Shown: positions 28,674 to 50,348 of the stretch, piece after piece
Numbering within the stretch: position 1 is the first letter of the stretch
Layout of the letters: every line of letters starts with the position of its first letter
Assembly (NCBI GenBank): GCA_964526945.1
Contig: CAZGNA010000002.1
Span: 1-52,149 of the forward strand
Source of the DNA: an uncultured bacterium
Lineage (GTDB): Bacteria > Sysuimicrobiota > Sysuimicrobiia > Sysuimicrobiales > Humicultoraceae
Length of the DNA stretch: 52,149 nucleotides
Reading direction: 5' to 3'
The notes under the pieces: generated by a model
Databases searched by the model: none
What the model was told of the DNA's origin: nothing
What the model saw: only the letters and a program-made list of their open reading frames with translations
Made by a program: the position numbers and the translations under genes

Positions 28674-28874
28674 ATCATACCCGGGTGTGGATACCCGTAC
28701 TTCGTCTGCCGATGCCCGCACCCGCGTGACGGTACCAGCGACCCGCGCGCCGAACGCTCCCGCAAGAGTGCGCCGGTGGCAGGAACGACCCTCAGGCGCC
28801 CGAATACCGCGAGAAGATCGCGTACAGCCCGCACCTGGGGACCACGGGACTGCGACCGCTCGGAGAGGTGTGGT

Positions 28875-30389: not shown

Positions 30390-30497
30390 CTGGTGGAGGC
30401 CACCCGGCGCGCCGTCAGTCAGTATCGCGGCTGGTATCGCCGCAGCGGCGGGTGCCGCCAGCGATGACTGGTGGAGGCCACCCGTCGCGCCGCAGTG
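30380..30497. repeat. ~40-bp direct repeat, two copies 78 bp apart, the first spanning the lptD-like stop codon
   Basis: ATGACTGGTGGAGGCCACCCG[G/T]CGCGCCG occurs at 30386-30414 and 30464-30492, with similar flanks (CCAGC[C/G] before, CAGT after). Confidence 0.9.
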
Positions 30498-30572
30498 CCG
30501 TGATGGTGTGCCGTCGCCCGAGGCGATTCGGGCCGCCGGGCGCGGAGGGAGGACCGTGCTGAGGACGTGGCC

Positions 30573-31943
30573 ATGAGCATCGCCGCCCAGATCTTTCGCG
30601 AGTACGACATCCGAGGGGTCGTGGGCACCGAGCTGTCCCCCGAGGTCGCCCGACGCATCGCGCGCGCCTACGCCGCCGAGCGCGGCCTGGCCGGACAGGC
30701 GGTCGTGCTGGGCCGCGACAACCGCACCCACTCGCCCGCGCTGGCCGCCGCCGTGGCCGAGGGCCTGGCCGCCTCCGGCTGTCGGGTGCTCGACCTCGGC
30801 ACCGTGATCACGCCCACGTTCTACTTCGCCCGCGTGCACTGGGAGGTCGACGGCGGGGTCATGGTCACCGCCAGCCACAATCCCCCCGAGTTCAACGGCT
30901 TCAAGCTGGCCGGCGGGTTCGGCACGTTGTACGGCGATCAAATCCAGGCCATCCGGCGGCGGGCCGTGCAGGGACCGTTCGTCGACGGCGCCGGCACCGT
31001 GGAGCCGCGCGACGCGACCGGGCCCTACCGGGCGATGCTGCGCGAGCGCATCCGCCTGGGCCCGCGCCGGGTGAAGGTCGTGCTCGACTGCGGCAACGGG
31101 ACGGCCAGCCTGGTGGCCCCGCAGGTCTTCGCCGACTGGGGCGTCGAGCTCGTCCCGCTCTACTGCGACTCCGACCCACGCTTTCCCCACCACCATCCCG
31201 ACCCCGTCGAGCCCCACAACCTGGCCGACCTCATCGCCGCCGTGCGCCGCGAGCGCGCGGACGTCGGCATCGGCCTCGACGGCGACGGCGACCGCATCGG
31301 CGTCGTGGACGACCAGGGGCAGATCGTCTGGGGCGACCGCCTCATGGTGCTCTACTGGCGCGAGATCATGCCCCGCTACCCCGGCGCGCAGGTCATCGTC
31401 GAGGTGAAGTGCTCGCAGGCCCTGGTGGAGGAGGTCCAGCGGCTGGGCGGGCAGCCGTTCTTCTACCGCACTGGGCACTCGCTCATCAAGGCCAAGATGC
31501 GCGAGATCGGCGCGGTCTTCACCGGCGAGATGTCGGGCCACATGTTCTTCGCCGACGAGTACTACGGCTACGACGACGCCGTCTACGCCGCCGGCCGCCT
31601 GCTGCGCATCCTCTCCCACACCGACCGGCCCCTGTCGGCGCTCCTTGCCGACGTGCCCCAGTACCCGGTCACCCCCGAGGTGCGCGTCGCCTGTCCCGAC
31701 GACCGGAAGTTCGCCGTGGTGGCGGCGCTCGTCGAGCAGTTCAAGCGTGACCACCAGGTGATCGACGTCGACGGCGCCCGGGTGCTGTTCCCCGACGGGT
31801 GGGGGCTCGTGCGGGCCAGCAACACCCAGCCGGTGCTGGTGCTGCGGGCCGAGGCGACCACCGAGGCGGGGCTGGCGCGGATCAAAGCGGCCATCGCGGA
31901 GGCGTTGCGGCGCTTCCCGGAGGTGGGGCAGCCGCGGTGGTGA
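30573..31943 (+). CDS. phosphomannomutase/phosphoglucomutase (alpha-D-phosphohexomutase family)
   Basis: 'IFREYDIRG', active-site 'TASHNPPEFNGFK', Mg site 'GLDGDGDR', 'GEMSGH'. GAGGA lies 7 nt before ATG 30573, and GTG 30567 is also in frame. Confidence 0.9.
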   Translation: MSIAAQIFREYDIRGVVGTELSPEVARRIARAYAAERGLAGQAVVLGRDNRTHSPALAAAVAEGLAASGCRVLDLGTVITPTFYFARVHWEVDGGVMVTASHNPPEFNGFKLAGGFGTLYGDQIQAIRRRAVQGPFVDGAGTVEPRDATGPYRAMLRERIRLGPRRVKVVLDCGNGTASLVAPQVFADWGVELVPLYCDSDPRFPHHHPDPVEPHNLADLIAAVRRERADVGIGLDGDGDRIGVVDDQGQIVWGDRLMVLYWREIMPRYPGAQVIVEVKCSQALVEEVQRLGGQPFFYRTGHSLIKAKMREIGAVFTGEMSGHMFFADEYYGYDDAVYAAGRLLRILSHTDRPLSALLADVPQYPVTPEVRVACPDDRKFAVVAALVEQFKRDHQVIDVDGARVLFPDGWGLVRASNTQPVLVLRAEATTEAGLARIKAAIAEALRRFPEVGQPRW

Positions 31944-32214
31944 GCGGCTAGTCGACGGTGGGCGCGCGGCAGTCCGAGCCGGCGACCGGGCGGGCTGCCC
32001 GTCGTCCGCCGTTACGCGGCGCGGAGCACGATGGCACAGACCACACGCGGCCCTGTGGCATCTGCTACCCGCGTCGTCGACTGGGAATGCCGCGTAATAC
32101 TGGCAGGAGATGCTCGATGTCGGTCCGGTGCGGTCATGCGACGCATCCCGTCCGCATCGGAGGGAGAGGGTCCGTTCTCTGTTTGCGGTGCAGTCCGCGT
32201 TTCGTGGGAAGCGC

Positions 32215-32243
32215 TTGAAGGAAAGTGGGTAGTCTCGTAGTAA
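32215..32243 (+). promoter_or_regulatory. candidate sigma70-type promoter of the glycan operon (TTGAAG-N17-TAGTAA)
   Basis: Hexamers at 32215-32220 and 32238-32243 with 17-nt spacing. They sit in the lower-GC 370-bp gap upstream of the first island gene. Pattern match only. Confidence 0.25.
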
Positions 32244-32316
32244 GAAGGGCGCTGGTGGAAGAGTCACAGCGATGCGGCCGCTCTTGGTTCGTGCCATTGA
32301 CGTGGTAGCGAGGTGA

Positions 32317-33486
32317 GCGGCGATAGCCACGACGCCCCACATTTCCGTCATTATTCCCGCGTATAATGAGGCGCTCGGCCTCCCCGTAGTCCTGCGACGG
32401 CTCTTCGCCGCCATCGATGGGCAGACCGAGGTAATCGTCGTCGACGACGGGTCTCGCGACAACACCGTGACCGTGGCACGGGAGTTCCCCTGCCGGGTAA
32501 TCACCCACGAGACCAATCGCGGCAAGGGGGCGGCGATCCGGACTGGGCTGCAGGTGGCTCGTGGCCGTTCGGTGATCATCATCGATGCGGACGATACCTA
32601 TCCCGCCGAGGTCGTGGCTCAGATCGCCGAGCTGCTGAACACCTACGACATGGTGGTGACGTCCAGAATCCATCGCGGGCACATCCCCTGGCTCAACCGT
32701 ATTGGGAACATGTTCTTTCGAGTGCTGATCCGAACCTTCTACGGCTTTTCCGGCCGGGATCCGTTGACGGGGTTGTACGGCATCCGGCGGGTGTGCCTTG
32801 AGCAGATGGATCTGAGCGCCGAGGGGTTCGACGTAGAGGCGGAGATCGCCGTCAAAGCTGCCCGGATGGGTCTGTCGATCTGTGATCTCCCCATCGCCTA
32901 TGGGCCGCGTCTGGGAGTAGCCAAGCTGCGCCCGCTTCACGACGGCCGGGCCATCTTCCGCACCGTCGTTCGACTGATGGCCCTCTACAATCCCACCCTT
33001 GCCTTCACGTGGCCGGGGGTCGGGCTGATGCTGGCTGGGATGGCTATCATCGTGGTGCGGTTGTGGGTAGGAGGGTTGGCCGCCGGGCTGCGGATGGGGC
33101 CGCACTCTGTGGTGCTGGGCGCCATGATGGTCCTCGCCGGACACCAGGCCGCGGCACTCGGGGCGCTGGTGCAGATCTATGCCACCCTCCACCGGTTCGC
33201 TCCGGAAACGGTCCTGACGAGGATCGTGCGCTGGCCCCACATTGGCAAGCTCATGGGGCTGGCAGGGCTGGGAGCGACTGGCCTGGGGCTCGGGCTGGGT
33301 GCGGACCTGTTTCGCGGGTGGGTCGCCGCCGGGCGCGGCGCGTTCCTCCAGACCGAAATGGCCGCCCTGTCGTCACTGTTGGTGGTGCTGGGTATCCAGC
33401 TGGTGTTCACGACGATCTGCTTCTCCGTGTTCCTCGGGGAACTCTCCCGCCGCAGCCGGGTGGCGCGGGACGTCACCGAGCAGTGA
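32317..33486 (+). CDS. GT2 polyprenyl-phosphate glycosyltransferase (Dpm1/GtrB/ArnC-like) with C-terminal TM segments; no canonical start in frame
   Basis: The frame is open from 32317 and encodes 'ISVIIPAYNE...VIVVDDGSRD...IIIDADDTYP', then 4 hydrophobic helices. The first ATG/GTG in frame is 32467, downstream of the AYNE and DDGS motifs. A GTG at 32313 lies in the adjacent frame. Confidence 0.8.
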   Translation, partial: AAIATTPHISVIIPAYNEALGLPVVLRRLFAAIDGQTEVIVVDDGSRDNTVTVAREFPCRVITHETNRGKGAAIRTGLQVARGRSVIIIDADDTYPAEVVAQIAELLNTYDMVVTSRIHRGHIPWLNRIGNMFFRVLIRTFYGFSGRDPLTGLYGIRRVCLEQMDLSAEGFDVEAEIAVKAARMGLSICDLPIAYGPRLGVAKLRPLHDGRAIFRTVVRLMALYNPTLAFTWPGVGLMLAGMAIIVVRLWVGGLAAGLRMGPHSVVLGAMMVLAGHQAAALGALVQIYATLHRFAPETVLTRIVRWPHIGKLMGLAGLGATGLGLGLGADLFRGWVAAGRGAFLQTEMAALSSLLVVLGIQLVFTTICFSVFLGELSRRSRVARDVTEQ

Positions 33487-33496
33487 CCATCACACG

Positions 33497-34498
33497 ATGG
33501 TACGGGTGTCGGTGGTCGTGGTGACGTACAATGCGCGGTCGCATATCGACGAGTGCCTGCGTTCGCTGGAGCGTCAGACCTTTCGCGACGTGGAAGTTAT
33601 CCTGGTGGACAACGGATCCTCCGACGGCACGGTGGACTACGTGCGGGTGAGGTATCCCTCCGTCCGGTGCGTCCGGGCAGACCGTAACGTGGGCTATGCT
33701 GGTGGCATCAACTTGGGCGTGCGCAGCTGCCGGGGGGAGTTCGTCGCCGTGCTGAACCCGGACACGTCGGTGGAGCCCACCTGGCTGGAGCGCCTGGTGG
33801 AGGTCGTGACGCGACATCCCGAGGTCGGCGCGGTGACGTCACGCCTGGTACTGTACCACGATCGCACCCGGCTGAACGCTCTGGGCATCCGCATTCATGT
33901 GACGGGCCTCGCGTTCAACGAAGGCCTGGGCCGTCCCAATCTCGCGGGGCGGTGCGCGCCCTTCGCGGTCAGTGGCGTCCACGGGGGCGCATTTCTGGTC
34001 AGGAAGACAATCCTCGACCAGATCGGTGGTCTCAATGAAGATACCTTCATGTACTACGAAGAGGTGGATCTCTCGTGGATGTTGCATCTCTTGGGATGGC
34101 AGATCTGGTGCGTGCCCGACTCGGTCGTCTACCACAAATACACTCTGAAGATGTCCCCGGAGAAGTTTTTCTGGCTGGAGCGCAACCGGCTCGCGCTGCT
34201 GTGGGTTGTCCTCGAGCCGGTCACGGCCCTGCGGCTGGGCGCGTCCCTGTTGGTGACCGAAGCCTTCACCTGGGGCTACGCGCTGCTGCGCGGGCGGGAA
34301 TTCGTGAGCGCGAAGGGGCGCGCGTGGCGCTGGGTGGTTCGGCAGCGAGCCCGGCTGGCTGATCGGCGCCGGCGGGTCCAGGCCATGCGCCGGGTGCCGG
34401 ACCGCGAGATCCTGCCGCGGCTGTCGCGAGCCTACGCGTGGGATCAGCTGCCGAGCCTCCTGCGCGCACCGGTGCACGTGCGCCGGCCGACTGCATGA
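33497..34498 (+). CDS. family 2 glycosyltransferase (rhamnosyl/WbbL-like)
   Basis: 'VSVVVVTYNA', 'ILVDNGSSDG', 'NVGYAGGIN', 'LNPDT', 'MYYEEVDLSW'. Confidence 0.85.
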   Translation: MVRVSVVVVTYNARSHIDECLRSLERQTFRDVEVILVDNGSSDGTVDYVRVRYPSVRCVRADRNVGYAGGINLGVRSCRGEFVAVLNPDTSVEPTWLERLVEVVTRHPEVGAVTSRLVLYHDRTRLNALGIRIHVTGLAFNEGLGRPNLAGRCAPFAVSGVHGGAFLVRKTILDQIGGLNEDTFMYYEEVDLSWMLHLLGWQIWCVPDSVVYHKYTLKMSPEKFFWLERNRLALLWVVLEPVTALRLGASLLVTEAFTWGYALLRGREFVSAKGRAWRWVVRQRARLADRRRRVQAMRRVPDREILPRLSRAYAWDQLPSLLRAPVHVRRPTA

Positions 34499-34935
34499 AG
34501 CTCTGCCTGGTCGCTTCGCACGGCGGGCACATGACCGAGCTGCTCGCGCTGCAGGACGCGTTTCGTGAGCACGAGGTGTTCTACTGTTCGTACGTCAGCC
34601 CCGTGGATCGTGGACTGCAGCCCCTGTACACCTTTCCGAACCTGACCGAGCGCCCGTGGCACCTGGTGCCCGTGCTGGTCCGGGTATTCCGGCTGCTGCG
34701 GACGGAACGGCCGGATGTGATCGTGAGCACGGGGGCTGAGATCGCGATCCCGTTCTGCCTGCTTGGTCGGCTGCTGGGCGTCCGCGTCGTCTTCATCGAG
34801 AGCGTCTGCCGCGTACGCACGCCGTCCGTGACCGGCCGGCTGCTCTACTACCTGAGCGACGCGTTTTTCGTCCAGTGGCCGTCGCTGTTGCGACGGTACG
34901 GACCGAAAGCTCGGTTCGTCGGCGGCTTGCTGTGA
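34495..34935 (+). CDS. Alg14-like glycosyltransferase membrane-anchoring subunit (PssD/Cps14F type)
   Basis: 'CLVASHGGHMTELLAL', 'ERPDVIVSTGAEIAIPF' and 'FIESVCRVRTPSVTGRL' closely follow the bacterial Alg14-like pattern. ATGA overlap with the upstream stop. Confidence 0.85.
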   Translation: MKLCLVASHGGHMTELLALQDAFREHEVFYCSYVSPVDRGLQPLYTFPNLTERPWHLVPVLVRVFRLLRTERPDVIVSTGAEIAIPFCLLGRLLGVRVVFIESVCRVRTPSVTGRLLYYLSDAFFVQWPSLLRRYGPKARFVGGLL

Positions 34936-35426
34936 TTTTTGCGACCGTCGGCACACACCATCAGCCGTTCGATCGGTTGGTGCACGCGGTCGACCGGGTG
35001 GCCCGCGAGACTGACGAGGCCGTGGTGGTCCAAGCCGGCTGCAGCACCGTACGGCCTCAACGCGCGCAGGCCTTTGCCTATGCACCGCTGGCGGAAATCG
35101 AGGCGTACATGCGCGCCGCGCGCGTCGTCGTGGCGCACGCCGGCGCCGGCACGTTGATGACGGCCCTTCGGGTCGCGCGCGCGCTCGTCGTCATGCCACG
35201 GCGTCGGCAGTACGGCGAACACGTCGACGATCACCAGCTGGAGCTCGCCGACGCGCTGGCGCAGCGTGGTCTGGCGATCGTGGTCCACGACGCGGAATCG
35301 CTCGCGCCAGCCATCGAGCAGGCCCCGGCGCTGGTGCCAGGGACGGCGGGGCAGGCGCCAGCGCTGGTGGAGGCCCTCCGTCAGGTCCTGCGCGACCTGG
35401 ACGCGGGTCGCCGGCGCAGGCGATGA
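34932..35426 (+). CDS. Alg13-like glycosyltransferase catalytic subunit (GT28 C-terminal domain, PssE/Cps14G type)
   Basis: 'IFATVGTHHQPFDRL', 'VVAHAGAGTLMTAL', 'HVDDHQLELADAL'. GTGA overlap with the Alg14-like stop. Confidence 0.85.
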   Translation: MIFATVGTHHQPFDRLVHAVDRVARETDEAVVVQAGCSTVRPQRAQAFAYAPLAEIEAYMRAARVVVAHAGAGTLMTALRVARALVVMPRRRQYGEHVDDHQLELADALAQRGLAIVVHDAESLAPAIEQAPALVPGTAGQAPALVEALRQVLRDLDAGRRRRR

Positions 35427-36577
35427 GGATTGCCCTCATCACGTCGACGCCGCAGCCGCCTCAGGAAGGCATCGGCTACTACACGTACCATCTGGCCCGC
35501 GAGCTTCAGCGGCGAGGCCATGCGGTCACGCTTTTCACGCGTGGGACGTGGAGGCGGGTGACGGTGGACACCATCGACGGTGTGTCGGTGGTGCGCGTGC
35601 CATTCGCGCCGGTCTATCCCGTGCATGTGCACCTTCATGAACTGGTGTTCAATCGCATCTTCCGACCGCGGGAGGCGGCGTACGATCTCGTCCACCAGCA
35701 CACGCCGCTGCCCCCAGTCCTCCGCACCCGCTTGCCGGTGGTGCTGACCGTGCACACGCCGATGTTGGAAGACGCGCGTCACGCCGAGATAGCGGGCTGG
35801 CTGGGACTGGCGATCAAGCTGCAGGCGCCGCTCAGCGCGCGGATCGAGCGCCGGCTGCTCCAGCGGGCCGACGTGATTACGGCCGTGGCGACGTCGGTGG
35901 CCCACGAGCTGGCCGAGTACGGCGTGCGTCCCGACGCGGTGCGCGTGGTGGGCAACGGCGTGGACGTCGATGTCTTCGTGCCGCGACGCGGCCCGGCGCG
36001 GCCTGGCGGCATCCTCTACGTGGGTCGGCTTGCACACCGGAAAGGCTTGTTCGAGTTGCTGGAGGCCGTCTCGCGCCTCAGGCGGCGACGACCGCACGTG
36101 CGGCTGGCGATCGTGGGGGGCGGCCCGTTGGGACCGGCGCTGCGGCGGCGGGTAAAAGCGCTCGAGATCGGCGACGCCGTCGACTTCACGGGCCCGGTGA
36201 GCTACTGGGAGCGCCGCGCGCTGATGGGCTGGTTCCATTGGGCAGAGGTCTACGTGCAACCGTCGCGCTACGAAGGCCTCAGTACCACGGTCCTGGAGGC
36301 AATGGCCTGCGCACTGCCCGTCGTGGCCACTGCGGTCAGTGGCCATCTGGACGTGGTCCGGGATGGGGAGAACGGGCTCCTCGTCCCCCCACGAGATCCC
36401 GACCGGCTGGCGGCGGCGATCGAGAGGGTTCTGGACGATCCTGCACTCCGGGCGCGCCTTGGAGGGTTGGCCCGGCAGACCGTGGAGGCATGGTATACCT
36501 GGCGGCACGTCGCTGAGCGCCTGGAGGCCTGCTACGATCAGGCGTCGCGTCTCCGCCGCGGGAGGGGCATGTCGTGA
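35423..36577 (+). CDS. GT4-family (GT-B) glycosyltransferase
   Basis: 384 aa. 'GIGYYTYHLARELQRRGHAV' and the C-terminal 'EGLSTTVLEAMACALPVVATAVSG...ENG' (EX7E-like). ATGA overlap. Confidence 0.85.
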   Translation: MRIALITSTPQPPQEGIGYYTYHLARELQRRGHAVTLFTRGTWRRVTVDTIDGVSVVRVPFAPVYPVHVHLHELVFNRIFRPREAAYDLVHQHTPLPPVLRTRLPVVLTVHTPMLEDARHAEIAGWLGLAIKLQAPLSARIERRLLQRADVITAVATSVAHELAEYGVRPDAVRVVGNGVDVDVFVPRRGPARPGGILYVGRLAHRKGLFELLEAVSRLRRRRPHVRLAIVGGGPLGPALRRRVKALEIGDAVDFTGPVSYWERRALMGWFHWAEVYVQPSRYEGLSTTVLEAMACALPVVATAVSGHLDVVRDGENGLLVPPRDPDRLAAAIERVLDDPALRARLGGLARQTVEAWYTWRHVAERLEACYDQASRLRRGRGMS

Positions 36578-37719
36578 GGGTTGCGGTCGTCGTCCCTGGC
36601 CTCCGCGCGGAAACCACGAGCTTGCAGCCTTGGCGCTACATGCTGGAGGCAAGCCGCGGGTTGCGCGCCGCCGGATGCGACGTGGTCATTGTGTCCGACG
36701 GTTCTGGGTCCGCACCCGTCGCCACGGAGGCGCCGGTGCATGTCGTGCCGATGCTCCGGCGCCTGGACGGTTCTCACGCTCACGCCCTGTGGGCGGCAGT
36801 CGCGCCCGATCTCGTGGTATGGAACGTGGGGATCTCCAATGGCCTCTACCTGCGCTTCGAGCGCGTACCGGTGCCCGTGGTCCCGGTGTGGACCAGTCCC
36901 TTCTACGGCCTGCACGACCTCCTGCGGCTAGGGCCCAGATGCTGGCTGCGAGGCGGTCTGGCCTGGGCCACGCATTTCCCGGGCGCCGTCGCCCCACGTC
37001 TCTTGGCGCGGCGGCTCCTGGACGCGCCGAACGTACGGACGGTGGTCACCCTCTCCCACAGCACGGCCGTCGCCCTGCGCACCCTGGGCGCCGCGCGCCA
37101 GGAGGTGGCGGTGATTCTGCCGGGCATCGATGCACCGTGGTTCGCCGTGCGCTGCGCTGGGATACCGCCCCAGCCTCACGAGGTCGTGTTCTTCGGGAGC
37201 GCAGATGCTATACGCGGGTTGGACACGCTCGTACGGGCCGTGCAGGTACTGCGGCGCCGGGGACTCGACCTCCGGGCCACCCTGTACGTTCGCCGTCCGC
37301 CCCCGTCCGCCGGTGGCCAGCGACGCCCACGCGCCAGGGAAGTCGCCTCCGCCATTCGCCGGATCGATGGCTGGCTGGCGCCCGAGGAGCTGGCTGCGGC
37401 CGTTGCGCGTGCCGGGATCGTGGCGCTCCCCTTTGCCCTAGTCCCATCGGACGTGCCGCTGGCCGTCCTTGAGGCCATGGCCACCGGTCGTCCAGTGGTC
37501 TCGACCTGCGTGGACGGCATTCCGGACCTCCTCGGCGAGGGCCGAGGGTACCTGGTGCGGCCGGGTGATGCGGGCGAGCTAGCGCGAGCCCTGGCACGTG
37601 CCGCGAGGGATCCGTCGGACGCCCGGCGCCGGGGTGAGGCGGCCGCGTCGTGGGCCCAGGACAAGACCTGGGACGCCATGCGGGCCCGGTTTGCTGCGAC
37701 GGTACTGGCCGCCACGTGA
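36574..37719 (+). CDS. GT4-family (GT-B) glycosyltransferase
   Basis: 381 aa with a C-terminal 'LAVLEAMATGRPVVSTCVDGIPDLL' GT-B motif. GTGA overlap. Confidence 0.75.
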   Translation: MRVAVVVPGLRAETTSLQPWRYMLEASRGLRAAGCDVVIVSDGSGSAPVATEAPVHVVPMLRRLDGSHAHALWAAVAPDLVVWNVGISNGLYLRFERVPVPVVPVWTSPFYGLHDLLRLGPRCWLRGGLAWATHFPGAVAPRLLARRLLDAPNVRTVVTLSHSTAVALRTLGAARQEVAVILPGIDAPWFAVRCAGIPPQPHEVVFFGSADAIRGLDTLVRAVQVLRRRGLDLRATLYVRRPPPSAGGQRRPRAREVASAIRRIDGWLAPEELAAAVARAGIVALPFALVPSDVPLAVLEAMATGRPVVSTCVDGIPDLLGEGRGYLVRPGDAGELARALARAARDPSDARRRGEAAASWAQDKTWDAMRARFAATVLAAT

Positions 37720-38363
37720 ACACCTTCGGCCGACTCGTGTGCCTCTCCGGTGTGGACGGCGTCGGGAAGACGACCCACGCGCGGCTTTTGGTCGCTGCGC
37801 TGCGGGCGTCGGGCCGGCCAGCGCGGTACGAGTGGCTGCGTTTCAGCCACTACACCTCACTCGGGATCCTGGCCCTGGCGCGCGTGGTCGGCTTGACGCG
37901 TTACCGCACGGTCGGCGGCGTGCGCTATGCCTCGTGGGAGTTTCACCGTAGCCGCGCGGTCGCCGCACTGTTCCCGTGGACGGTGTGGGTCGACACCGCG
38001 CTCCGCTATGCGCTCGCGGTCCATCCCCGCCTCCGGCGGGCGGAGTGGGTGGTCGTGGATCGCTTCGTCCCGGACATCCTGGTGGACCTGATGCTGGCGG
38101 TGGGCCGATGCGACCTCCATCGCGCCCCTGTGGGGCGGGCCTTCGCCCGGTTGATTCCCCCCGGCGCCCGGCTGGTGCTCCTTGATGCCGACGAAGCCGT
38201 CCTCCGGGCCCGGCGGCCGGATGTCGCGCACGACCCCATGCTGGGGGTGCGGCGGCAGCTCTACCTGACGCTGGCCCAGGCGACAGGAGTTCCCGTGGTG
38301 AGGGCTAACACAGGGATAGAGGACGTCCAGGCTCGCCTTCGGGCCCTGGTCTTGGCTCCATGA
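37716..38363 (+). CDS. thymidylate-kinase-like P-loop protein with ~70-aa insert
   Basis: Tail of ORF 37650..38363. P-loop 'LSGVDGVGKTTHARLL' (Tmk pattern GxDGxGKTT), and 'VVDRFVPD' at the Tmk DR position. GTGA overlap upstream and ATGA overlap downstream. Confidence 0.55.
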   Translation: MNTFGRLVCLSGVDGVGKTTHARLLVAALRASGRPARYEWLRFSHYTSLGILALARVVGLTRYRTVGGVRYASWEFHRSRAVAALFPWTVWVDTALRYALAVHPRLRRAEWVVVDRFVPDILVDLMLAVGRCDLHRAPVGRAFARLIPPGARLVLLDADEAVLRARRPDVAHDPMLGVRRQLYLTLAQATGVPVVRANTGIEDVQARLRALVLAP

Positions 38364-39025
38364 CCACCAGCGGCCGCTACGCCGTCTCAGATGCCAGGGT
38401 GCTCCAGCCGCTCCTGCGGCACCCGCTGGGCGCGCTCTTGGTTCACTGGGTGGTCCAGGGAATGCTGCAGATGGACAGGACGGAGCGGACCTTCAAGCTT
38501 GGTCTAGATGTATGCGGAGGGCTTCTCGGCGCGCTGCTCCTGCAGCGCTGGTTTGGGTGGCCGCTTGCTGGGCTGACGGGCTGGCTCGTGGCCCACACGC
38601 TCAACATGGTGTGCAACGGGCATGTCTTCGTGGTGCTGAAACACTTTGGGAGCATGCAGCATGACCGGGAGCGGATCCGGCGCTACCTAGCGGGGGTGGA
38701 GGCGCGGGTGCGCCGGGAACCAAGCGTGCGGTATGCTGCCCTCTTTGGCAGCATTGCGCGCGGGGAGTGGCAACCTACTTCCGACATCGACGTGCGCTTG
38801 GTGCGGCGGTCCGGGATGTGGGCGGGCCTGCGCGCCTGCGGGTTTGCACTGGCCGAGCGGACGCGGGCCACGTGGGGGCGCATTGCCGTCGATGTGTACG
38901 TGCTGGACGGCCCGGCGGCGCTGGCGACGCTACGGCGAGATGAGCCCGCAGTGGTGCTCCACGATCCCGAGGGGCTGTCGCGAGACTTGGATCGCCCATG
39001 GACCACGCTGGCGGCGGTCCTGTGA
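38360..39025 (+). CDS. membrane-anchored Pol-beta-superfamily nucleotidyltransferase
   Basis: The N-terminal ~100 aa hold hydrophobic segments ('LGLDVCGGLLGALLLQRWFGWPLAGLTGWLVAHTL'). They are followed by 'ALFGSIARGEWQPTSDIDVRLV' and 'DVYVLD'. Confidence 0.6.
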   Translation: MTTSGRYAVSDARVLQPLLRHPLGALLVHWVVQGMLQMDRTERTFKLGLDVCGGLLGALLLQRWFGWPLAGLTGWLVAHTLNMVCNGHVFVVLKHFGSMQHDRERIRRYLAGVEARVRREPSVRYAALFGSIARGEWQPTSDIDVRLVRRSGMWAGLRACGFALAERTRATWGRIAVDVYVLDGPAALATLRRDEPAVVLHDPEGLSRDLDRPWTTLAAVL

Positions 39026-39888
39026 CGGGGGAGGTTCCGCCGACGGTGCGCTGGGGACGACCGGAAACGGTCGAGCCGGATACGGTCATCCGCGCCAAGC
39101 GTGCCGTCCTCGAGCGCCTGTTTCGCGACGAGATTGGCGTCCCCGATCCGATGGGCCGGGTCGACGCGTACTTGGCGTGTAACCCGGCTCCGCTGCTGAT
39201 TGGGCGGTTGGTGCACCGGGTGCCGATCGCGGGGCGCGATCTGCTGGACGTCGGCTGTGGCTTCGGGGAGTTCCTGGTGGAGGCTGGCCGCGCGGGCGCG
39301 CGGGTGGTCGGCATCGACATCAGCGCCGATGCCGTCGCCATTGCCCGGGACTCCCTGCGCGTTCACGGCATCAGGGGGCGGGTGGTCTGCGCCGCGGGCG
39401 AGGCGCTCCCGTTTCCCGACGCGTCGTTCGATGTCGTAGTGTCCAACTATGTCCTCGAGCACGTGCGCTCCCCTGAACGCGTGCTCCGAGAGATCGTGCG
39501 GGTCCTGCGGCCGCGCGGTCAGGCCGTGCTGAACCTGCCCAACAACGTGTTCCCCTGGGAGGGGCACTACAACCTCGTCTGGCCGCCGATGCTGCCCAAG
39601 GTCCTGGGACGCTGGTACGTCCGCCTCCGGGGCATGAACCCCGAGTACCTGGAACGCCTCCACTACATCACCCGCCGGCGTGTGCTTCGGACGCTAGAGG
39701 CGCTTCCCGTACGCGTCGTCGCCGACCTCCTCCTGGATTGCTTCGAGACGCCCGGGCTTGTGCGCCAAGGATGGCGTCGGTGGGCCGTCCGCATGATCCG
39801 CAGCGCGCACCTGCACGTCGTGGCGAGTCGGCTCGCGCCGGATATCTCGCTCTTGATTGAACGGACGGCATCACAGGGGCACCGATGA
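39022..39888 (+). CDS. class I SAM-dependent methyltransferase
   Basis: 'LLDVGCGFGEF' motif I, 'FDVVVSNYVLEHV', 'LRPRGQAVL'. GTG 39022 gives a GTGA overlap, and ATG 38998 is also in frame. Confidence 0.8.
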   Translation: MTGEVPPTVRWGRPETVEPDTVIRAKRAVLERLFRDEIGVPDPMGRVDAYLACNPAPLLIGRLVHRVPIAGRDLLDVGCGFGEFLVEAGRAGARVVGIDISADAVAIARDSLRVHGIRGRVVCAAGEALPFPDASFDVVVSNYVLEHVRSPERVLREIVRVLRPRGQAVLNLPNNVFPWEGHYNLVWPPMLPKVLGRWYVRLRGMNPEYLERLHYITRRRVLRTLEALPVRVVADLLLDCFETPGLVRQGWRRWAVRMIRSAHLHVVASRLAPDISLLIERTASQGHR

Positions 39889-40811
39889 ACGTTGGCGTGA
39901 TCGGCGGGTCGGGCTTTGTGGGTCGGCACGTCGTGGATCTGTTGATGCGGGCCGGGCACGAGGTTACGGTGTTCGACATCATGCGGCCTCCGCGGGACGA
40001 CGTGCGGCATGTTTACGTCGACATCACGGACAGCACCCAGACCGCGGTGGCCCTGGCAGGACCGTATGACGTCGTCTACATGCTCGCCGCCATGGCTGAC
40101 GTGAACGATGTCTACCGCAATCCCGTGGAAGCCGGCGCCGTCAACGTCATGGGTGTGGCCAACGTGCTGGAAGCCTGTCGGCGGCATGGGATTCCTCGAC
40201 TGATCCTCGCCAGCACCATCTGGGTATACGATGCGGCGACCATGACTGACGTCGACGAGACGACGCCAGTGCATCCCGATCGGGTTTCCCACGTCTACAC
40301 GGCAACGAAGTTGGCTGCCGAGATGTACTGCGCCGCCTACGCACGGCTGTTCGGCGTTGCGTACACGATCCTCCGCTACGGCATCCCCTACGGGCCTGGC
40401 GCGCGGGATGAGACGGTCCTGGCGACGTTCGTGCGGCGGGCCCTCCAGGGGCTCCCGCTGGTCGTCCACGGGGACGGGCAGCAATTCCGTCACTTCGTCT
40501 ACGTGGAGGATCTCGCCGCGGGCAACGTGGCGGCCTTGCAGGAGGCTGCGGTCAACCAGACCTTCAACCTCGCCGGCGATCGTGCCGTGACGGTTCGGGA
40601 AGTGGCTGAGACGGTCTGCCGTCTCGTGGCCGGCGTGCAGATCCAGTATCAGGCCTCGCGGCTAGGCGATTCGCCGGGCAAACGGGTCTCGTCGCGTCGC
40701 GCCGCCGAGGTCCTCGGATGGAAGCCCCGGGTCGCGTTCGAGGAGGGCGTCCGGTACTACCTTCGCTGGCTGGAGAGCCGCAGGAAGGAGAACCGTGGTA
40801 CGGGGCGATAG
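39885..40811 (+). CDS. NAD-dependent epimerase/dehydratase (extended SDR)
   Basis: 'VIGGSGFVGRHVV' Rossmann motif and 'YTATKLAAE' (YxxxK). ATGA overlap. Confidence 0.85.
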   Translation: MNVGVIGGSGFVGRHVVDLLMRAGHEVTVFDIMRPPRDDVRHVYVDITDSTQTAVALAGPYDVVYMLAAMADVNDVYRNPVEAGAVNVMGVANVLEACRRHGIPRLILASTIWVYDAATMTDVDETTPVHPDRVSHVYTATKLAAEMYCAAYARLFGVAYTILRYGIPYGPGARDETVLATFVRRALQGLPLVVHGDGQQFRHFVYVEDLAAGNVAALQEAAVNQTFNLAGDRAVTVREVAETVCRLVAGVQIQYQASRLGDSPGKRVSSRRAAEVLGWKPRVAFEEGVRYYLRWLESRRKENRGTGR

Positions 40812-42018
40812 AGGGTGTCGGGACGGAGACGGGGCCCTGTCGCCACCGGTGGTCATCGTCCACCCGTACGACCCGTCACGTCCGGCCGAGGGTGGCGATA
40901 TCCGGTACACCATGGACTTCCTACGTTTCTACCGGCGCCACGGTGTGCCCGTGACGGTGGTCGGCGTGCTGCGGCCAGGAGGCACGCCGCCCGCCGACGG
41001 CGGGTTTATTCCGATCCACCACACGTACGCGTGGCTCGCCTTCGGCCTCAAGCTGCTCGCGCGCCTGCCGTTTCTGCCGTTACCGCCGAACGCTGTGCTC
41101 CAAACCCACCAGCCCCTCTTTATGTTTCCCGTGGTGCTGGCTGACTGGCGGCGCCCCAAGCTGTGCACCTTGGGGGCGGCTCGCCTCCACATGGCACGGC
41201 AGCGATGGCCCCGATGGTATCCGGTGATCGCAATGGTCTACGGTTGGCTGGAGCGACTCATGATCCGCCGAGTGGATCGGTTCGTCGCCGTGAGCTCGCA
41301 CATCGCGGACGATTACCTGCGCCGGTACCCTCAGCTCGCCCGGAAGCTCACCATCATCCCCGTTGGGGTGGACACCGACCTGTTCGCGCCCCAACCCGGG
41401 GACCGGGGACGATTCGGCTTGCCGCCCGACGCGCGCGTCGTGACGTTCGTCGGGCGGATTGAGCGCGTCAAGCGCGTCGATTTCCTGCTGGACGCCTTTG
41501 CCCGGGTCGTCCAGGAAATTCCGCAGGCTCACCTGCTGGTCGTGGGCCGAGGCACCGATGAAGACCGTGTACGGGCCTTGCAGGCCAAGCGACGGATTCC
41601 CCATGTCTACTTTCTGGGCGAGCACCCACCCGCCGAAATCCCACGCGTGCTCGCCGTTACCGATGTCCTTGCCGTGTGCTCTGAATCAGAAGGCGGACCG
41701 GCGGTCATCCGTGAGGCGCTCGCGTGCGGCGTCCCTGTCGTCAGCACCGATGTGGGGGACGCGCGCGAGGTGCTCAGCGATCCAGCGGTGGGCGTCGTGG
41801 TGGAGGGCGGAGTGGAGGAGTTCGCGCGGACCCTGACCCGGGCGCTAGCCGGAGAGCTCAGGTTCGACCGCGCCCGGTGCCGGGAGGTCGCCCAGCGGTA
41901 CTCGTTCGAGGCGACTGGCCAACGCTATCTCGAGATGCTGCGCGAGCTCGCCGGCGGCTGGCGATCTTCCCCGCCCGTGTGGCGCGGCCTGTGCGGGCGG
42001 CGCCCGGTGCGACCATGA
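40795..42018 (+). CDS. GT4-family (GT-B) glycosyltransferase
   Basis: AGGAAGGAG RBS. 'VTFVGRIERVKRVD' and 'SESEGGPAVIREALACGVPVVSTDVGD' (EX7E-like). Confidence 0.8.
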   Translation: MVRGDRGCRDGDGALSPPVVIVHPYDPSRPAEGGDIRYTMDFLRFYRRHGVPVTVVGVLRPGGTPPADGGFIPIHHTYAWLAFGLKLLARLPFLPLPPNAVLQTHQPLFMFPVVLADWRRPKLCTLGAARLHMARQRWPRWYPVIAMVYGWLERLMIRRVDRFVAVSSHIADDYLRRYPQLARKLTIIPVGVDTDLFAPQPGDRGRFGLPPDARVVTFVGRIERVKRVDFLLDAFARVVQEIPQAHLLVVGRGTDEDRVRALQAKRRIPHVYFLGEHPPAEIPRVLAVTDVLAVCSESEGGPAVIREALACGVPVVSTDVGDAREVLSDPAVGVVVEGGVEEFARTLTRALAGELRFDRARCREVAQRYSFEATGQRYLEMLRELAGGWRSSPPVWRGLCGRRPVRP

Positions 42019-42881
42019 GGTGGCCGACCTCGCCGGCCTTCGGCGACCTGCTGGGGCTCTGGGTCTGCGCGGGCATGTGTCTCGCGCTGCTCTCCCTCGT
42101 CGATCTCCCCGCGGTCCGGATGTTGCTGAGCCTCCCGCTGTTGCTCGTCTTTCCGGGGTACGCCGTCGTCGCCGCGCTGTTCGTTCGCGGTGACGAGGTC
42201 CGTATGCTTGACCGGGCCATCCTGGCGGTGGGGCTCAGTCTGGCCGTGACTCCGGTTGCAGGGCTGCTCGTGCTCTGGCGCGGCGGTGCGATGGACCGGG
42301 TGTCGACGCTGGCCGGCGTCGGCGCCGTGATGATGGGGGGAACGCTGGTCGCGGCGATCCGCCGCCGACGTGCGGGAGTGAGTCGCGTGACCGACTGCAC
42401 GCCCACGGGCGAGACCCGGGTGCGCTGGCCTGCAACCATGGGGCCGGCGACCGGGATCGCGGTCGCGACCCTGCTGCTCGGCCTCGGGCTGTGGGCCACC
42501 CAGTCGGCGCAGACGCGTCGGACCGAGGCCTACACCGAGTTCTATGTGCGGCCCCCCACGAGCCAAGTGCTCGACGGGTTCCCGCTGCCCGTGACGCGAG
42601 CGGCGGGTGAGGTGGTCGTGGGAGTCGCCAACCGTGAGGGACGTCCCATGCGGTACACGGTGCACGTCCGGCTGGACGGTGAGGTCGTGGTGCGGTTGAC
42701 CGGGATCGCGCTCGACTCTGAGCAGACCTGGGAACGGCGCGTGCGGGTGCCCCTGGCCCGGCCCCCGGGCCTTGTGCAGGCGGTCGTGCAACTGTACACG
42801 ACCGAGACCGGCGCACCGTACCGGGAGGCCAATGTGTGGTTCGCGGTGCGCGCCCCTGAAGGGATTGGAGGCCTGCGGTGA
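42015..42881 (+). CDS. DUF1616-like membrane protein (family otherwise typical of Archaea)
   Basis: 'LSLPLLLVFPGYAVVAALF...LDRAILAVGLSLAVTPVAGLL', then 'YTEFYV...GEVVVGVANREGRPMRYTVHVRLDGE'. These follow the DUF1616 N-terminal TM and C-terminal beta-sandwich patterns as I recall them. ATGA overlap. Confidence 0.65.
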   Translation: MRWPTSPAFGDLLGLWVCAGMCLALLSLVDLPAVRMLLSLPLLLVFPGYAVVAALFVRGDEVRMLDRAILAVGLSLAVTPVAGLLVLWRGGAMDRVSTLAGVGAVMMGGTLVAAIRRRRAGVSRVTDCTPTGETRVRWPATMGPATGIAVATLLLGLGLWATQSAQTRRTEAYTEFYVRPPTSQVLDGFPLPVTRAAGEVVVGVANREGRPMRYTVHVRLDGEVVVRLTGIALDSEQTWERRVRVPLARPPGLVQAVVQLYTTETGAPYREANVWFAVRAPEGIGGLR

Positions 42882-44659
42882 GTGCTGGGGGTGCGATGGC
42901 CCGCACGGTGGCGGTGTTCGCCGTGCTGTATGCGGCGACGGCCGGCTACCTTGTGGCCTTCCGCGCCGGGGCGGCAACGTCCGCCGTGCCGTTGTGGTTG
43001 CTGGTTGTCGCGCCCCTCGCGTGCTTGGCGCTGACCCTGCACCGGGTCAGGACGCTGCATGACCTGGAGGCCAGCGCGTGGTGCGCAGCCGCCGTGCCGC
43101 AGATCCTGGCCCTCGTGCTCGCGGTGCGGGTGGCTCTGCAACCGGCCGGCCCGGTCCTGCCGGGTCTCGATCCGTACACCGAGTACGCGGCCGCATTCCG
43201 TATCAGCCTGCGCGGGTGGCCCCTTCCCGAGGTCGCCTTCGCCTCGCAGGCCGCGTTCCCGCTGGTCCACGTCCTGGCTCTCATGACCTCAACACTCACA
43301 GGTGCCGATCTGTTCACCGTGGTGAAGTGGCTGCCGTCTGTGTACACCCTGGCGTCCATCCTGCTGATCTTCGGCATGGCACTGCGGTTCGGCTGGCATC
43401 CGTTCGTGGCCCTCTACGCCGCATTTGCTGTGGCGTTCACGTACATGTTCTTCTTCTTCCACGCGTTGTTCATTCGTGAGGGCCTCGCGTACGTGCTAGG
43501 CTTGGGCCTTGTGTACGCCGTCGCCGCAGCCAGGACGGGCCCCGCGCCCTGGCGGCTCGTCGCGGCAATGTTTGGTGCATCGATGATCCTTGCCCATCAC
43601 CTGGGCCCGGTGTTGTTCGGCGGCTTCCTCGTGTGCTGGCTGGTGCTGGAAGTTGCGCTGTCGTGGCGGGACCAGGTGCGACGGGCAGCAGGGCGGTCGT
43701 GGCTCGTGTGGAGTGGCGTGCTGGTGGTCGGGCTTGCGGTGGCGCAGCAGCTCTACTGGGCCCAGGTCGCCGCAGCCCCCCGCAGGAGCATAGCACCGGT
43801 CTTGAGCACGGTCGAGAAAGGCGCATCGCCGGAGGTCGGATCGCCCGCAGTGGCGGGCGGTGTGCCAGCGGTCTGGGGGCTGCTGGAACGGATCGTGGGG
43901 AAGCGCGCGCTCCCGTTGCTTTTCGATGCCCGCACACGGGCGCTGCTCTTGGGCCAGGTGCTGGCGGCCACGGTCGGGGGCCTTATGGTCCTGGCGGGCG
44001 TGGTGAGATTTCGGGAACTCCGGACGCCGGTCTTCTTCGCCTGTATCCTGTGGACCACCGGAATGGGCGTCCTCAGCCTCTTGACCCTGACCGGCCGCGT
44101 GCTGCCTTATGAGTCGGTCGCGCTGGCCTCACGTTTCGAAACCCTCGGGTTCTTGGCCCTGATGCTCGTGATAGCGCAGGTGGGAGTGCGACTCCGGTCC
44201 GGGTGGGTGGTCATTGCATTCGCCGGACTGTGGGCTCTGCTGAATCTCTACCGGGCTGCCCCGTACGTTGCAGCCAGCGTGCGGTCTCCAAAGACGCCGG
44301 CGGAGTTGGCGTCGCAGTACGTCGTGCGGCCGTCCGAGGTAGCTGCGACCCGGTGGGTGCCGGCCGGAGCCACGCTGGGGCTGGACTACTGGCTGCAGGA
44401 CGTCTTTAGGGCCTACCAGGCGCTCGAAGCTCGTCGGCCATACGTGTACCGGGGGGCGTACCTTCGAGAGATATTCGAGGGCAACCGCGAGGCTGCCGGC
44501 TATCTACGTCGTCGTCGGATTGCCTACCTTGTCGTTGGAGCTCGTGGATGCCTGGCACTCGGCGAAGTCCGCTGCACGGCGCTGCAACACGACCCGACCC
44601 TGTCCAGGTTTTACGACAACGGCAACGTGCGGATCTATGCCGTGCGACCCTCCCCCTAG
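42878..44659 (+). CDS. 593-aa polytopic membrane protein, GT-C-fold glycosyltransferase/polymerase candidate
   Basis: About 12 or more hydrophobic helices, an early loop 'GLDPYTEYAAAFR' and a soluble C-terminal ~120 aa. GTGA overlap with the DUF1616 gene. I recognised no WWDxG motif. Confidence 0.45.
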   Translation: MSAGGAMARTVAVFAVLYAATAGYLVAFRAGAATSAVPLWLLVVAPLACLALTLHRVRTLHDLEASAWCAAAVPQILALVLAVRVALQPAGPVLPGLDPYTEYAAAFRISLRGWPLPEVAFASQAAFPLVHVLALMTSTLTGADLFTVVKWLPSVYTLASILLIFGMALRFGWHPFVALYAAFAVAFTYMFFFFHALFIREGLAYVLGLGLVYAVAAARTGPAPWRLVAAMFGASMILAHHLGPVLFGGFLVCWLVLEVALSWRDQVRRAAGRSWLVWSGVLVVGLAVAQQLYWAQVAAAPRRSIAPVLSTVEKGASPEVGSPAVAGGVPAVWGLLERIVGKRALPLLFDARTRALLLGQVLAATVGGLMVLAGVVRFRELRTPVFFACILWTTGMGVLSLLTLTGRVLPYESVALASRFETLGFLALMLVIAQVGVRLRSGWVVIAFAGLWALLNLYRAAPYVAASVRSPKTPAELASQYVVRPSEVAATRWVPAGATLGLDYWLQDVFRAYQALEARRPYVYRGAYLREIFEGNREAAGYLRRRRIAYLVVGARGCLALGEVRCTALQHDPTLSRFYDNGNVRIYAVRPSP

Positions 44660-50247: not shown

Positions 50248-50348
50248 CGGGATCGCTCCACGGGTCCGACCTCTGAGTTCTTGCCCGTTCTCGCGACGCT
50301 CTTTGGTGAAAGGATGCCAGAGGCTTGGAGCGAAGTGAAGAGGCAGCC

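Follow-up and report, generated by a model that had tools for sequence, protein, structure and literature searches.

Two small consecutive genes, here called A and B, lie in a glycan-assembly operon of a contig from an uncultured bacterium of the Sysuimicrobiota (CAZGNA010000002.1, positions 1 to 52,149; this whole stretch of 52,149 nucleotides is the window). Together with the family-4 glycosyltransferase gene immediately upstream (GT4_2), they form a module that is conserved across distant taxa. A encodes a P-loop kinase with the fold of thymidylate kinase (Tmk), and B encodes a minimal nucleotidyltransferase (NTase) preceded by a helical domain with a hydrophobic hairpin. The reading that we favour tentatively, and would place a shade below even, is that GT4_2, A and B work at the cytoplasmic face of the membrane on a polyprenyl-linked glycan, phosphorylating it with ATP and using a nucleoside triphosphate (NTP) for nucleotidyl activation or transfer.

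Linkage of GT4, A and B

A reading made earlier from the letters alone (the sequence-only reading) had grouped A and B with the methyltransferase gene that follows them (C), and had placed GTGA/ATGA overlaps at 37716, 38360 and 39022. All three junctions are there, each 4 nt long. GTG 37716-37718, the start of A, overlaps TGA 37717-37719, the stop codon of GT4_2; ATG 38360 of B overlaps TGA 38361-38363 of A (an ATGA junction), and GTG 39022 of C overlaps TGA 39023-39025 of B (a GTGA junction). The same coupling extends on both sides, as GT4_1 (35423-36577) overlaps GT4_2 (36574-37719) upstream, and downstream ATG 39885 overlaps TGA 39886-39888, which ties C to the gene for an NAD-dependent epimerase. 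Despite the G+C content of 70%, A and B are real genes, because 366 homologues of A and 58 of B were found and both structural models have a mean predicted local distance difference test score (pLDDT) of 94-96.

The distribution of the family was followed by an exhaustive search with A in a library of 1.8 billion proteins, and by scanning one genome of each GTDB species with a 5-sequence A alignment as query, B then being sought in the loci by hidden Markov model searches. The library yielded 1047 representative proteins at E <= 1e-3, 366 of them at E <= 1e-10, and members were also met in metagenome-assembled genomes (MAGs) of Asgard archaea and Thermoproteota. From the genome scan 32 loci were obtained, mostly in Chloroflexota (Anaerolineales, Chloroflexia, Roseiflexaceae, Caldilineaceae), the others belonging to Geoglobus, Methanobacteriota, Bathyarchaeota, Omnitrophota, one deltaproteobacterium and one acidobacterium. 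B was present in 23 of these 32 loci (Chloroflexota, Omnitrophota and the archaeon Geoglobus) and in 21 of the 23 it was adjacent to A, overlapped it or was fused with it; in six of six loci seeded with B, A stood just upstream. When distant members of the A family were taken, B was found with all its motifs (142 bits) in three of three further loci. Of these, L039 comes from a Bacteroidetes MAG and L041 from a contig of 4.6 Mb; L040 is a contig from a metagenome, and its A protein is recorded for a Cloacimonetes MAG as well. Their gene order is DUF354 - GT4 - A - B - GT in L039 and L041, and GT4 - A - Hexapep - DUF354 - B - GT in L040. The complete MAGs CP070764.1, CP070639.1 and OY969916.1 are among the carriers of A and B. 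Thus the co-occurrence of A and B outside this genome, on which the sequence-only reading had staked its proposal, turned out to be widespread, and extends even to single fused polypeptides.

The third conserved partner is the glycosyltransferase. In most related loci the gene just before A encodes an orthologous GT4, and the order GT2 - GT2 - Alg14-like - Alg13-like - GT4 - GT4 - A - B recurs, Geoglobus included. Among the best 149 A representatives, from which the fusions were counted, 19 were A-B fusions (P0077, P0096 and P0098 are examples) and 12 were GT4-A fusions (for instance P0078 and P0101). B is also joined to GT4, both as GT4-B followed by A (L033, 6047-7957) and as B with a trailing GT4 C-terminal domain (L014); in P0166 the A-B polypeptide continues into a polysaccharide deacetylase, and in P0090 and P0131 the fusion partner of A-B is a polytopic membrane protein of about 600 amino acids. 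Because of this linkage and these natural fusions, the conserved trio is the GT4 encoded at 36574-37719 with A and B, and the coupling of A and B to GT4 and to membrane elements has an obligate look. The trio proposed before, with the methyltransferase as third member, did not hold, since C follows B only in the window and in one close relative.

Several local variants of the module were registered. In the close relative, GCA_030157145.1, about 950 bp lie between A and B (L001/L002, 6288-7239; L003, 10102-11053), and an 83-aa methyltransferase fragment within this gap on one contig indicates local rearrangement. In L044 (4479-6615) A is followed by a 297-aa open reading frame (ORF) composed of a B copy and a C-terminal A fragment, and then by a second B, which is a local duplication. 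A LuxR-type response regulator gene directly follows A in L009 (8714-9460) and L014 (8634-9311), with B at least 3 kb downstream in both. Genes for hexapeptide acyltransferases stand directly after A or B in L005, L006, L031 and L040 among others, and sulfotransferase genes adjoin the pair in L041 (9316-10044) and L044 (8512-9399).

A polytopic membrane protein of about 600 aa is encoded after B in nine Chloroflexota loci (L004, 8636-10405; L009, 12894-14873; L011, L012, L013, L021, L022, L026 and L034). It has a conserved soluble C-terminal domain of about 170 aa with invariant motifs such as YQP, WxHQVN and YDNGG, and nothing above threshold was found for this family in Pfam or PDB, the best match being DUF6541 (18 bits with a cut-off of 29). 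This protein was not detectable in the window, and the 593-aa membrane protein encoded there (42878-44659) is not a recognisable homologue of it.

Protein A: a Tmk fold with a replaced acceptor segment

The AlphaFold2 (AF2) model of A, built from a 60-sequence alignment, reached a pLDDT of 95.5 and a predicted template modelling score (pTM) of 0.90, and all 50 of the PDB fold matches listed for it are thymidylate kinases (Foldseek E = 4e-8, TM 0.6-0.66). Sequence models detect only the P-loop: PF02223 scored 25.7 bits over 23 residues with a cut-off of 27, and the dTMP kinase model TIGR00041 scored 23.8 bits with a cut-off of 83.25. The family profile aligns with Tmk at residues 5-33 (P-loop and helix 1) and at about 100-210, that is, strand 3 with DRF, the lid and the C-terminal helices; for residues 34-99 this comparison gave no alignment. 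Both motifs quoted from the letters alone are where they were said to be, GVDGVGKTT at residues 12-20 and DRF at residues 115-117, the latter aligning with the DRF/DRY motif of Aquifex and Thermus Tmk.

Between these motifs a hydrophobic or aromatic insert of about 70 aa had been suspected. An unusual segment does exist there (about 34-99), but it replaces the segment that binds the nucleoside monophosphate (NMP) in Tmk rather than being inserted, and neither in it nor elsewhere in A is there hydrophobicity of transmembrane grade. This replaced acceptor module lengthens the protein by about 20 residues net; in the AF2 model a helix is followed there by a beta-hairpin (61-74) and then a long helix (80-107). 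W40, G59 and D93 are invariant in 60 members, and R42, S48, P50, R56, T61, F76 and P87 nearly so. A thus retains the phosphoryl-transfer machinery of Tmk and combines it with a new acceptor pocket, rich in Asp, Arg and aromatic residues including Trp. Since this pocket stands in place of the dTMP site, the phosphate acceptor of A should be something other than dTMP.

The view that A is not a bona fide dTMP kinase, already taken in the sequence-only reading, is supported by both the profile and the structure checks. The P-loop, DR[YFH] and the lid arginine are present, and the full-length model including the dTMP-binding segment failed; with scores below both cut-offs, a replaced acceptor segment, and a context and fusions that do not fit, the assignment to dTMP kinases was rejected.

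Local synthesis of 3'-phosphoadenosine-5'-phosphosulfate (PAPS), with A as a kinase of adenosine-5'-phosphosulfate (APS) and B as an adenylyl-transferring enzyme, was considered too, and was rejected, as sulfotransferase genes occur in two of about 45 loci and A is Tmk-like, matching Tmk far better than APS kinase.

Some kinases of the A family (P0100, P0105, P0115, P0147, P0174 and P0200) bear an N-terminal extension of about 95 residues with two hydrophobic helices. It was found on at least 9 of the best 149 representatives, and by its sequence would give such kinases a membrane anchor of their own.

Protein B: a hydrophobic hairpin before a minimal nucleotidyltransferase

For B, a non-exhaustive search gave 58 full-length homologues (32-58% identity). 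Its second half agrees with what was proposed before: a minimal NTase core of the MNT/ANT fold, for which PF01909 gave 27.2 bits, above its cut-off of 21. Both quoted motifs are present, 'GSIARGEWQPTSDIDV' being residues 130-145 and 'DVYVLD' residues 178-183, and they carry a GS...DxD...D pattern in which G130, D142, D144, D178 and D183 are invariant and S131 is conserved in at least 90% of sequences. The fold matches of this domain are the MNT/MntA antitoxins (8xeh_E, 8xeo, 7bxo), the Sulfolobus protein 2rff, and ANT(4'), LinB and HalB. B ends right after the core, without the C-terminal helical substrate domain of ANT/LinB.

The N-terminal region had been described as about 100 hydrophobic residues. 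Residues 13-119 are indeed helical, but only about 47-85 are hydrophobic, and this hairpin is flanked by two polar motifs. In the first of them W30, Q33 and E42 are invariant in 44 aligned sequences and H29, D39, T41, F45 and K46 are at least 90% conserved, and it is preserved in the Bacteroidota-type homologues too; in the second H79 is invariant, and A78, N82, N86, L93 and K94 are at least 90% conserved in the same alignment. The hairpin itself is variable in sequence yet hydrophobic throughout the family (KD19 1.3-1.7), and a few members give weak matches to transmembrane-domain Pfam families. It probably inserts into the membrane. In the fusions B comes directly after cytoplasmic A or GT4 domains, which places both its N-terminus and its NTase domain in the cytoplasm; with this topology both polar motifs would lie at the cytoplasmic membrane interface beside the NTase site. 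No match to residues 13-119 was obtained in Pfam or by fold search in PDB.

Assignment of B to known families was tried and rejected in three cases, in line with the earlier view, now backed by profile and fold checks, that it is not a known sugar-modifying NTase, toxin-antitoxin (TA) antitoxin or LicD. As an MntA-type antitoxin or defence protein it scored 26.5 with NF047752 (cut-off 60), PADLOC and NCBIfam gave matches at the motif level only, and a HEPN gene is absent beside it. As LicD/fukutin (PF04991) the window protein had no match at E <= 0.1, PF04991 was not among the 25 families listed for 44 B members (E <= 1), and LicD was not among the 50 fold matches listed. With ANT(4')/LinB (KNTase) only the NTase core aligns, over about 55-130 columns and with TM 0.2-0.36, and the extra domain of B is N-terminal.

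One might still suppose that a housekeeping dTMP kinase and an orphan TA-type nucleotidyltransferase came into this operon by chance. Some database entries do label members 'dTMP kinase' or 'thymidylate kinase', and the best PDB matches of A are Tmk; but A fails both curated dTMP-kinase thresholds with its dTMP-binding segment replaced, no toxin partner accompanies B, and the gene order recurs in other phyla and in Geoglobus, with A and B fused to each other and to GT4. Such a coincidence is hardly credible. A regulatory pair is another reading, and the coupling to GT4 by fusion would suit a regulator too. B would then AMPylate a protein, GT4 or another assembly component, much as its closest structural matches, the MNT antitoxins, AMPylate a protein tyrosine (MntA on HepT), and A would be an NTPase or kinase switch over chain length or flux. 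However, the HEPN partner is absent, the MntA model scores far below its cut-off, A, with its full kinase lid and its elaborate and conserved acceptor pocket, does not look like a simple switch, and the membrane-interface motifs of B would be left unexplained; we consider this explanation very unlikely.

A possible reaction and its alternatives

Taken together, the intact motifs and the models suggest that A and B are catalytically competent. The hairpin and polar motifs of B, the membrane-extended variants of A and the fusions of A-B to a polytopic protein point to a membrane-bound substrate. In the reading that we favour, GT4_2, A and B would act as one membrane-associated enzyme unit at the cytoplasmic face, and its substrate would be a glycan intermediate, linked to polyprenyl phosphate, that the neighbouring GT2, PssD/E-type and GT4 transferases have assembled. 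A would be the ATP-dependent kinase, the likeliest acceptor being a hydroxyl (or phosphate) on the sugar freshly added by GT4. B, held at the membrane by its hairpin so that the polar residues at the hairpin ends stand beside an intact two-metal NTase site, would nucleotidylate with NTP the group phosphorylated by A. This step might leave a nucleotide- or phosphodiester-linked substituent or, more probably, create a nucleoside diphosphate (NDP) ester activated for transfer to a further acceptor, so that the order would be kinase, nucleotidyltransferase, phosphotransfer; in this genome C may optionally tailor the product further. What we infer here are the lipid-linked substrate, the reaction order, and which NTP and which final substituent are involved. 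The sequence-only reading, too, had proposed a kinase-plus-NTase step on the glycan or its lipid carrier; this remains the best reading, with the methyltransferase taken out of the unit.

Chemical precedents exist, one being the succession of kinase, nucleotidyltransferase and phosphotransferase in the Lic pathway. The closest structural relatives of B (MntA, ANT(4'), LinB) transfer NMP to hydroxyl groups, and ANT(4') and LinB nucleotidylate hydroxyls that include those of sugars. Tam41 is a membrane-associated enzyme of the NTase fold that nucleotidylates a lipid-bound phosphate with CTP (PMC7018664).

Several observations weigh against the reading. In 5 of 28 loci with a strong A (L015, L016, L024, L031 and L032) B is not found within 8 kb, so that A apparently does not depend on a nearby B. 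For the B protein of the window, the hairpin is borderline as a transmembrane segment (own KD19 <= 1.26). The retained arginine of the DR motif of A is equally compatible with a phosphate monoester or a nucleotide as acceptor. No substrate, product or phenotype is on record for any member; no phosphotransferase to use the NDP-activated glycan was recognised, unless it is GT4 or the polytopic membrane protein; and, to our knowledge, nucleotide-capped surface glycans have not been described. ORFs of 227-229 aa that follow A in L015 and L016 were considered as candidates for B and are not its homologues.

A kinase, a nucleotidyltransferase and a glycosyltransferase also make up the classical three-step incorporation of a sugar, and the module could be a donor-supply line, where A makes X-phosphate from a free sugar or polyol, B converts it with NTP into NDP-X, and GT4 transfers X or X-phosphate. 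Every pairwise fusion among GT4, A and B exists, as expected for substrate channelling, and the pocket of A, rich in Asp, Arg and Trp, would be typical of carbohydrate binding; the P-loop domain of 6-phosphofructo-2-kinase, moreover, is NMP-kinase-like and phosphorylates an anomeric hydroxyl. Such a soluble pathway, however, needs no conserved membrane hairpin, no transmembrane-extended A and no fusion to a polytopic protein, the source of a free precursor is not conserved in the loci, and we know of no NDP-sugar pyrophosphorylase with the Pol-beta/MNT fold. We regard this explanation as unlikely.

B might instead prime or activate the lipid itself, acting on the carrier or anchor phosphate either as a Tam41-like NDP-lipid synthase or as a LicD-like phosphotransferase that passes sugar-1-phosphate from an NDP-sugar to polyprenyl phosphate, in which case it would be a new kind of initiating phosphoglycosyl transferase, with A as a lipid kinase or as an NMP kinase that removes the released NMP. 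By its size and topology (about 200 aa, membrane hairpin, cytoplasmic catalytic domain) B resembles the small monotopic polyprenyl-phosphate enzymes, it has conserved basic and polar residues at the predicted interface, and A keeps the arginine that Tmk uses for the acceptor phosphate. Neither family of canonical initiating phosphoglycosyl transferases (PF02397, PF00953) was met in the Chloroflexota loci with listed Pfam matches or among the scanned window proteins, and Tam41 again sets the precedent of an NTase fold nucleotidylating a lipid phosphate (PMC7018664). Yet the conserved block has an AglJ/DPM1-like GT2 able to start on polyprenyl phosphate, a Bac_transf gene is present in the Bacteroidetes-MAG locus L039, the A-B pair tracks one particular GT4 and not the pathway start, B is absent in some loci that retain the rest of the block, and a replaced NMP-binding segment is unexpected in an NMP kinase. 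Priming of the lipid appears rather improbable.

A bolder reading would make B the founder of a class, new to science, in which small enzymes of the NTase fold with a membrane hairpin act directly on polyprenyl-phosphate-linked substrates, with A as its dedicated Tmk-derived kinase. B may then be a non-canonical initiating or phosphodiester-forming transferase with chemistry of the LicD/Tam41 type, or the installer of a transient NDP-ester. Though we see little likelihood of this being so, it would mean, if true, a widespread unrecognised step in the archaeal-type lipid-linked glycan assembly of Chloroflexota, Bacteroidota and Archaea.

Methyltransferase C and the surrounding locus

The product of C is a SAM methyltransferase, as had been stated (Table 1). 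Synteny rules it out as a member of the module, since it directly follows B only in the window and in its single close relative (L001-L003); in L010 GT4 and A have a methyltransferase-like ORF between them, and in the remaining loci methyltransferases are absent or elsewhere. C is thus a lineage-specific neighbour, translationally coupled here and standing outside the conserved module.

Table 1. Coordinates in the window of the module, its motifs and gene C (residue numbers are those of the encoded protein)
Feature	Coordinates	Strand	Basis
GT4_2, family-4 (GT-B) glycosyltransferase, conserved partner upstream of A/B	36574-37719	+	PF13692, PF00534
A, 215-aa soluble P-loop kinase, thymidylate-kinase fold, family-specific acceptor region	37716-38363	+	AF2 model, fold matches, profile alignment
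A, Walker A/P-loop GVDGVGKTT, residues 12-20	37749-37775	+	G12, D14, G15, G17, K18 invariant in 60 members
A, segment 34-99 in place of the dTMP-binding region of Tmk	37815-38012	+	No Tmk alignment; AF2 secondary structure
A, DRF motif (residues 115-117) and acidic helix, D115 R116 F117...D120...D124	38058-38087	+	D115, R116, D120, D124 invariant
A, lid arginines RRPD, R166-D169	38211-38222	+	R166, D169 nearly invariant; aligns with Tmk lid
B, 221 aa, N-terminal helical/hairpin domain and minimal nucleotidyltransferase	38360-39025	+	AF2 pLDDT 93.8
B, polar motif 1, H29 W30..Q33...D39.T41 E42..F45 K46, just before hairpin	38444-38497	+	Alignment of 44 sequences
B, hydrophobic helical hairpin, residues ~47-85, probable membrane insertion	38498-38614	+	Helices 40-61, 67-85
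B, polar motif 2, A78 H79 T L N82...N86......L93 K94, hairpin exit	38591-38641	+	Alignment of 44 sequences
B, minimal MNT/ANT-type (Pol-beta superfamily) nucleotidyltransferase domain, residues ~117-216	38708-39007	+	PF01909, PF18765
B, catalytic residues G130 S131, D142xD144	38747-38791	+	
B, catalytic residues D178/D183	38891-38908	+	
C, class-I SAM methyltransferase	39022-39888	+	PF08241, E = 2.8e-28

The locus is one of lipid-linked glycan assembly with an archaeal flavour. Its operon encodes a GT2, the first of the block, that resembles AglJ and dolichyl-phosphate hexose transferases, then PssD/PssE, that is, an Alg14/Alg13-like pair of the PssD/PssE (Cps14F/G) family upstream, three GT4s, a DUF1616 protein and Wzy_C. 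On the 3' side C is followed by the epimerase, the third GT4, DUF1616, the 593-aa membrane protein, a DegT aminotransferase, two further methyltransferases and Wzy_C. The description of the locus as one of the Wzx/Wzy type stood in part: the Wzy_C gene is at 48548-50458 on the minus strand, but no Wzx was recognised by Pfam within the window, while related loci do carry Polysacc_synt flippases. No tRNA or Rfam features were found in the window.

Between the archaeon and the window the resemblance goes beyond the module. In Geoglobus sp. UBA235 (L007, 3753-12047, compared with 33242-44659 of the window) GT2, Alg14-like, Alg13-like, GT4, GT4, A, B, GT4 and membrane protein genes follow one another alike, and the order of the block common to the archaeon and Chloroflexota suggests that the whole block moved between the domains Archaea and Bacteria.

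The gene for the DUF1616 protein (41724-42881) is followed by that for the 593-aa membrane protein (42878-44659), which has no Pfam or NCBIfam match; its Geoglobus counterpart (L007, 10419-12047) gave a weak match to PMT_2 (GT-C), on the strength of which the two proteins may be an extracytoplasmic transferase pair of the GT-C type.

At the other end, in the first GT2 gene (region 32272-32470), an in-frame TGA (32314-32316) separates a good ATG (32272) from the GT-A N-terminus. The conserved 'ISVIIPAYNE' begins at about 32335, and the next ATG/GTG/TTG is found only at 32467, inside the domain. The start may be non-canonical, the gene may be a pseudogene or be read through, or the sequence may contain an error.

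Because the G+C content of the window is about 70%, long spurious ORFs are frequent in it. Overlapping antisense and alternative-frame ORFs of up to 1582 aa, for instance 27834-32582 on the minus strand, run across annotated-looking genes; the very long ones are probably artefacts of 70-75% G+C and not genes.

Significance

GT4, A and B are among the tightest-linked gene sets in these glycan clusters, with overlapping stop and start codons and repeated independent fusions, and the module spans Chloroflexota, Omnitrophota, a Bacteroidetes MAG, a Cloacimonetes-linked contig and Archaea. The 366 representative clusters of the A family (E <= 1e-10) are annotated as 'hypothetical' or, wrongly, as dTMP kinase, which amounts to a systematic mis-annotation. 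Once solved, the chemistry would supply a missing enzymatic step of lipid-linked oligosaccharide assembly in poorly studied phyla, and could explain phosphate-linked envelope features of the phyla that carry it. For biochemistry and structural work the natural fusions offer convenient targets, each of them a single polypeptide.

Comparison with known systems

That the pair matches no described pathway, as had been said of it, agrees with the searches made: no literature account of A-B was found, and no model of Pfam, NCBIfam or PADLOC covers either family beyond generic motifs. The family members that have names are called 'hypothetical', 'predicted nucleotidyltransferase' or 'dTMP kinase', and all come from MAGs; no cultured carrier was met.

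With Tmk (PF02223/TIGR00041) A shares the fold, the GxDGxGK[ST]T P-loop with its Asp, DR[FY] after strand 3, the arginine lid and the C-terminal helices, and it is derived from thymidylate kinase and works alike. It differs in that the dTMP-binding segment of about 40 residues is represented by one of about 65 residues, with a beta-hairpin and invariant residues of its own, in that A stays below the family cut-offs, and in that it is always found in glycan clusters, fused to GT4 or to the nucleotidyltransferase. B has in common with MNT/MntA, ANT(4') and LinB the minimal Pol-beta-type core with GS...DxD...D, and the nucleotidylation of sugar hydroxyls performed by ANT and Lnu enzymes is plausible chemistry for it. 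Unlike them, it has neither a HEPN partner nor a C-terminal helical substrate domain, and carries instead an N-terminal helical domain of about 115 residues with the hydrophobic hairpin and the two conserved polar motifs. B is thus a member of the Pol-beta minimal NTase superfamily that stands outside the MntA, ANT/KNT and LicD families.

No similarity of B to Tam41, the mitochondrial CDP-diacylglycerol synthase, was detected in structure comparisons; Tam41 differs from B by its winged-helix domain and its C-terminal membrane-binding region, and also in pathway and context.

WbdD, the chain terminator of E. coli O9a, is a kinase and methyltransferase that works with GT4 mannosyltransferases on a lipid-linked glycan. 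The likeness lies in a kinase, followed here by a methyltransferase, that is coupled to GT4; but the WbdD kinase has the protein-kinase fold, no nucleotidyltransferase takes part, and C is not conserved with A-B. The LicA/LicC/LicD system, to which the sequence-only reading had likened its trio, and fukutin/FKRP would be alike in the logic of a kinase, nucleotidyl activation and phosphodiester transfer onto a glycan, LicD and fukutin being classed as NTase-fold proteins. However, B has no sequence or fold match to LicD, the folds of the kinase and the NTase differ from those of LicA and LicC, and here only two enzymes and a GT4 are conserved. The system in the window is best classed as a kinase-plus-nucleotidyltransferase route of glycan tailoring or activation that uses new families hard-wired to a GT4.

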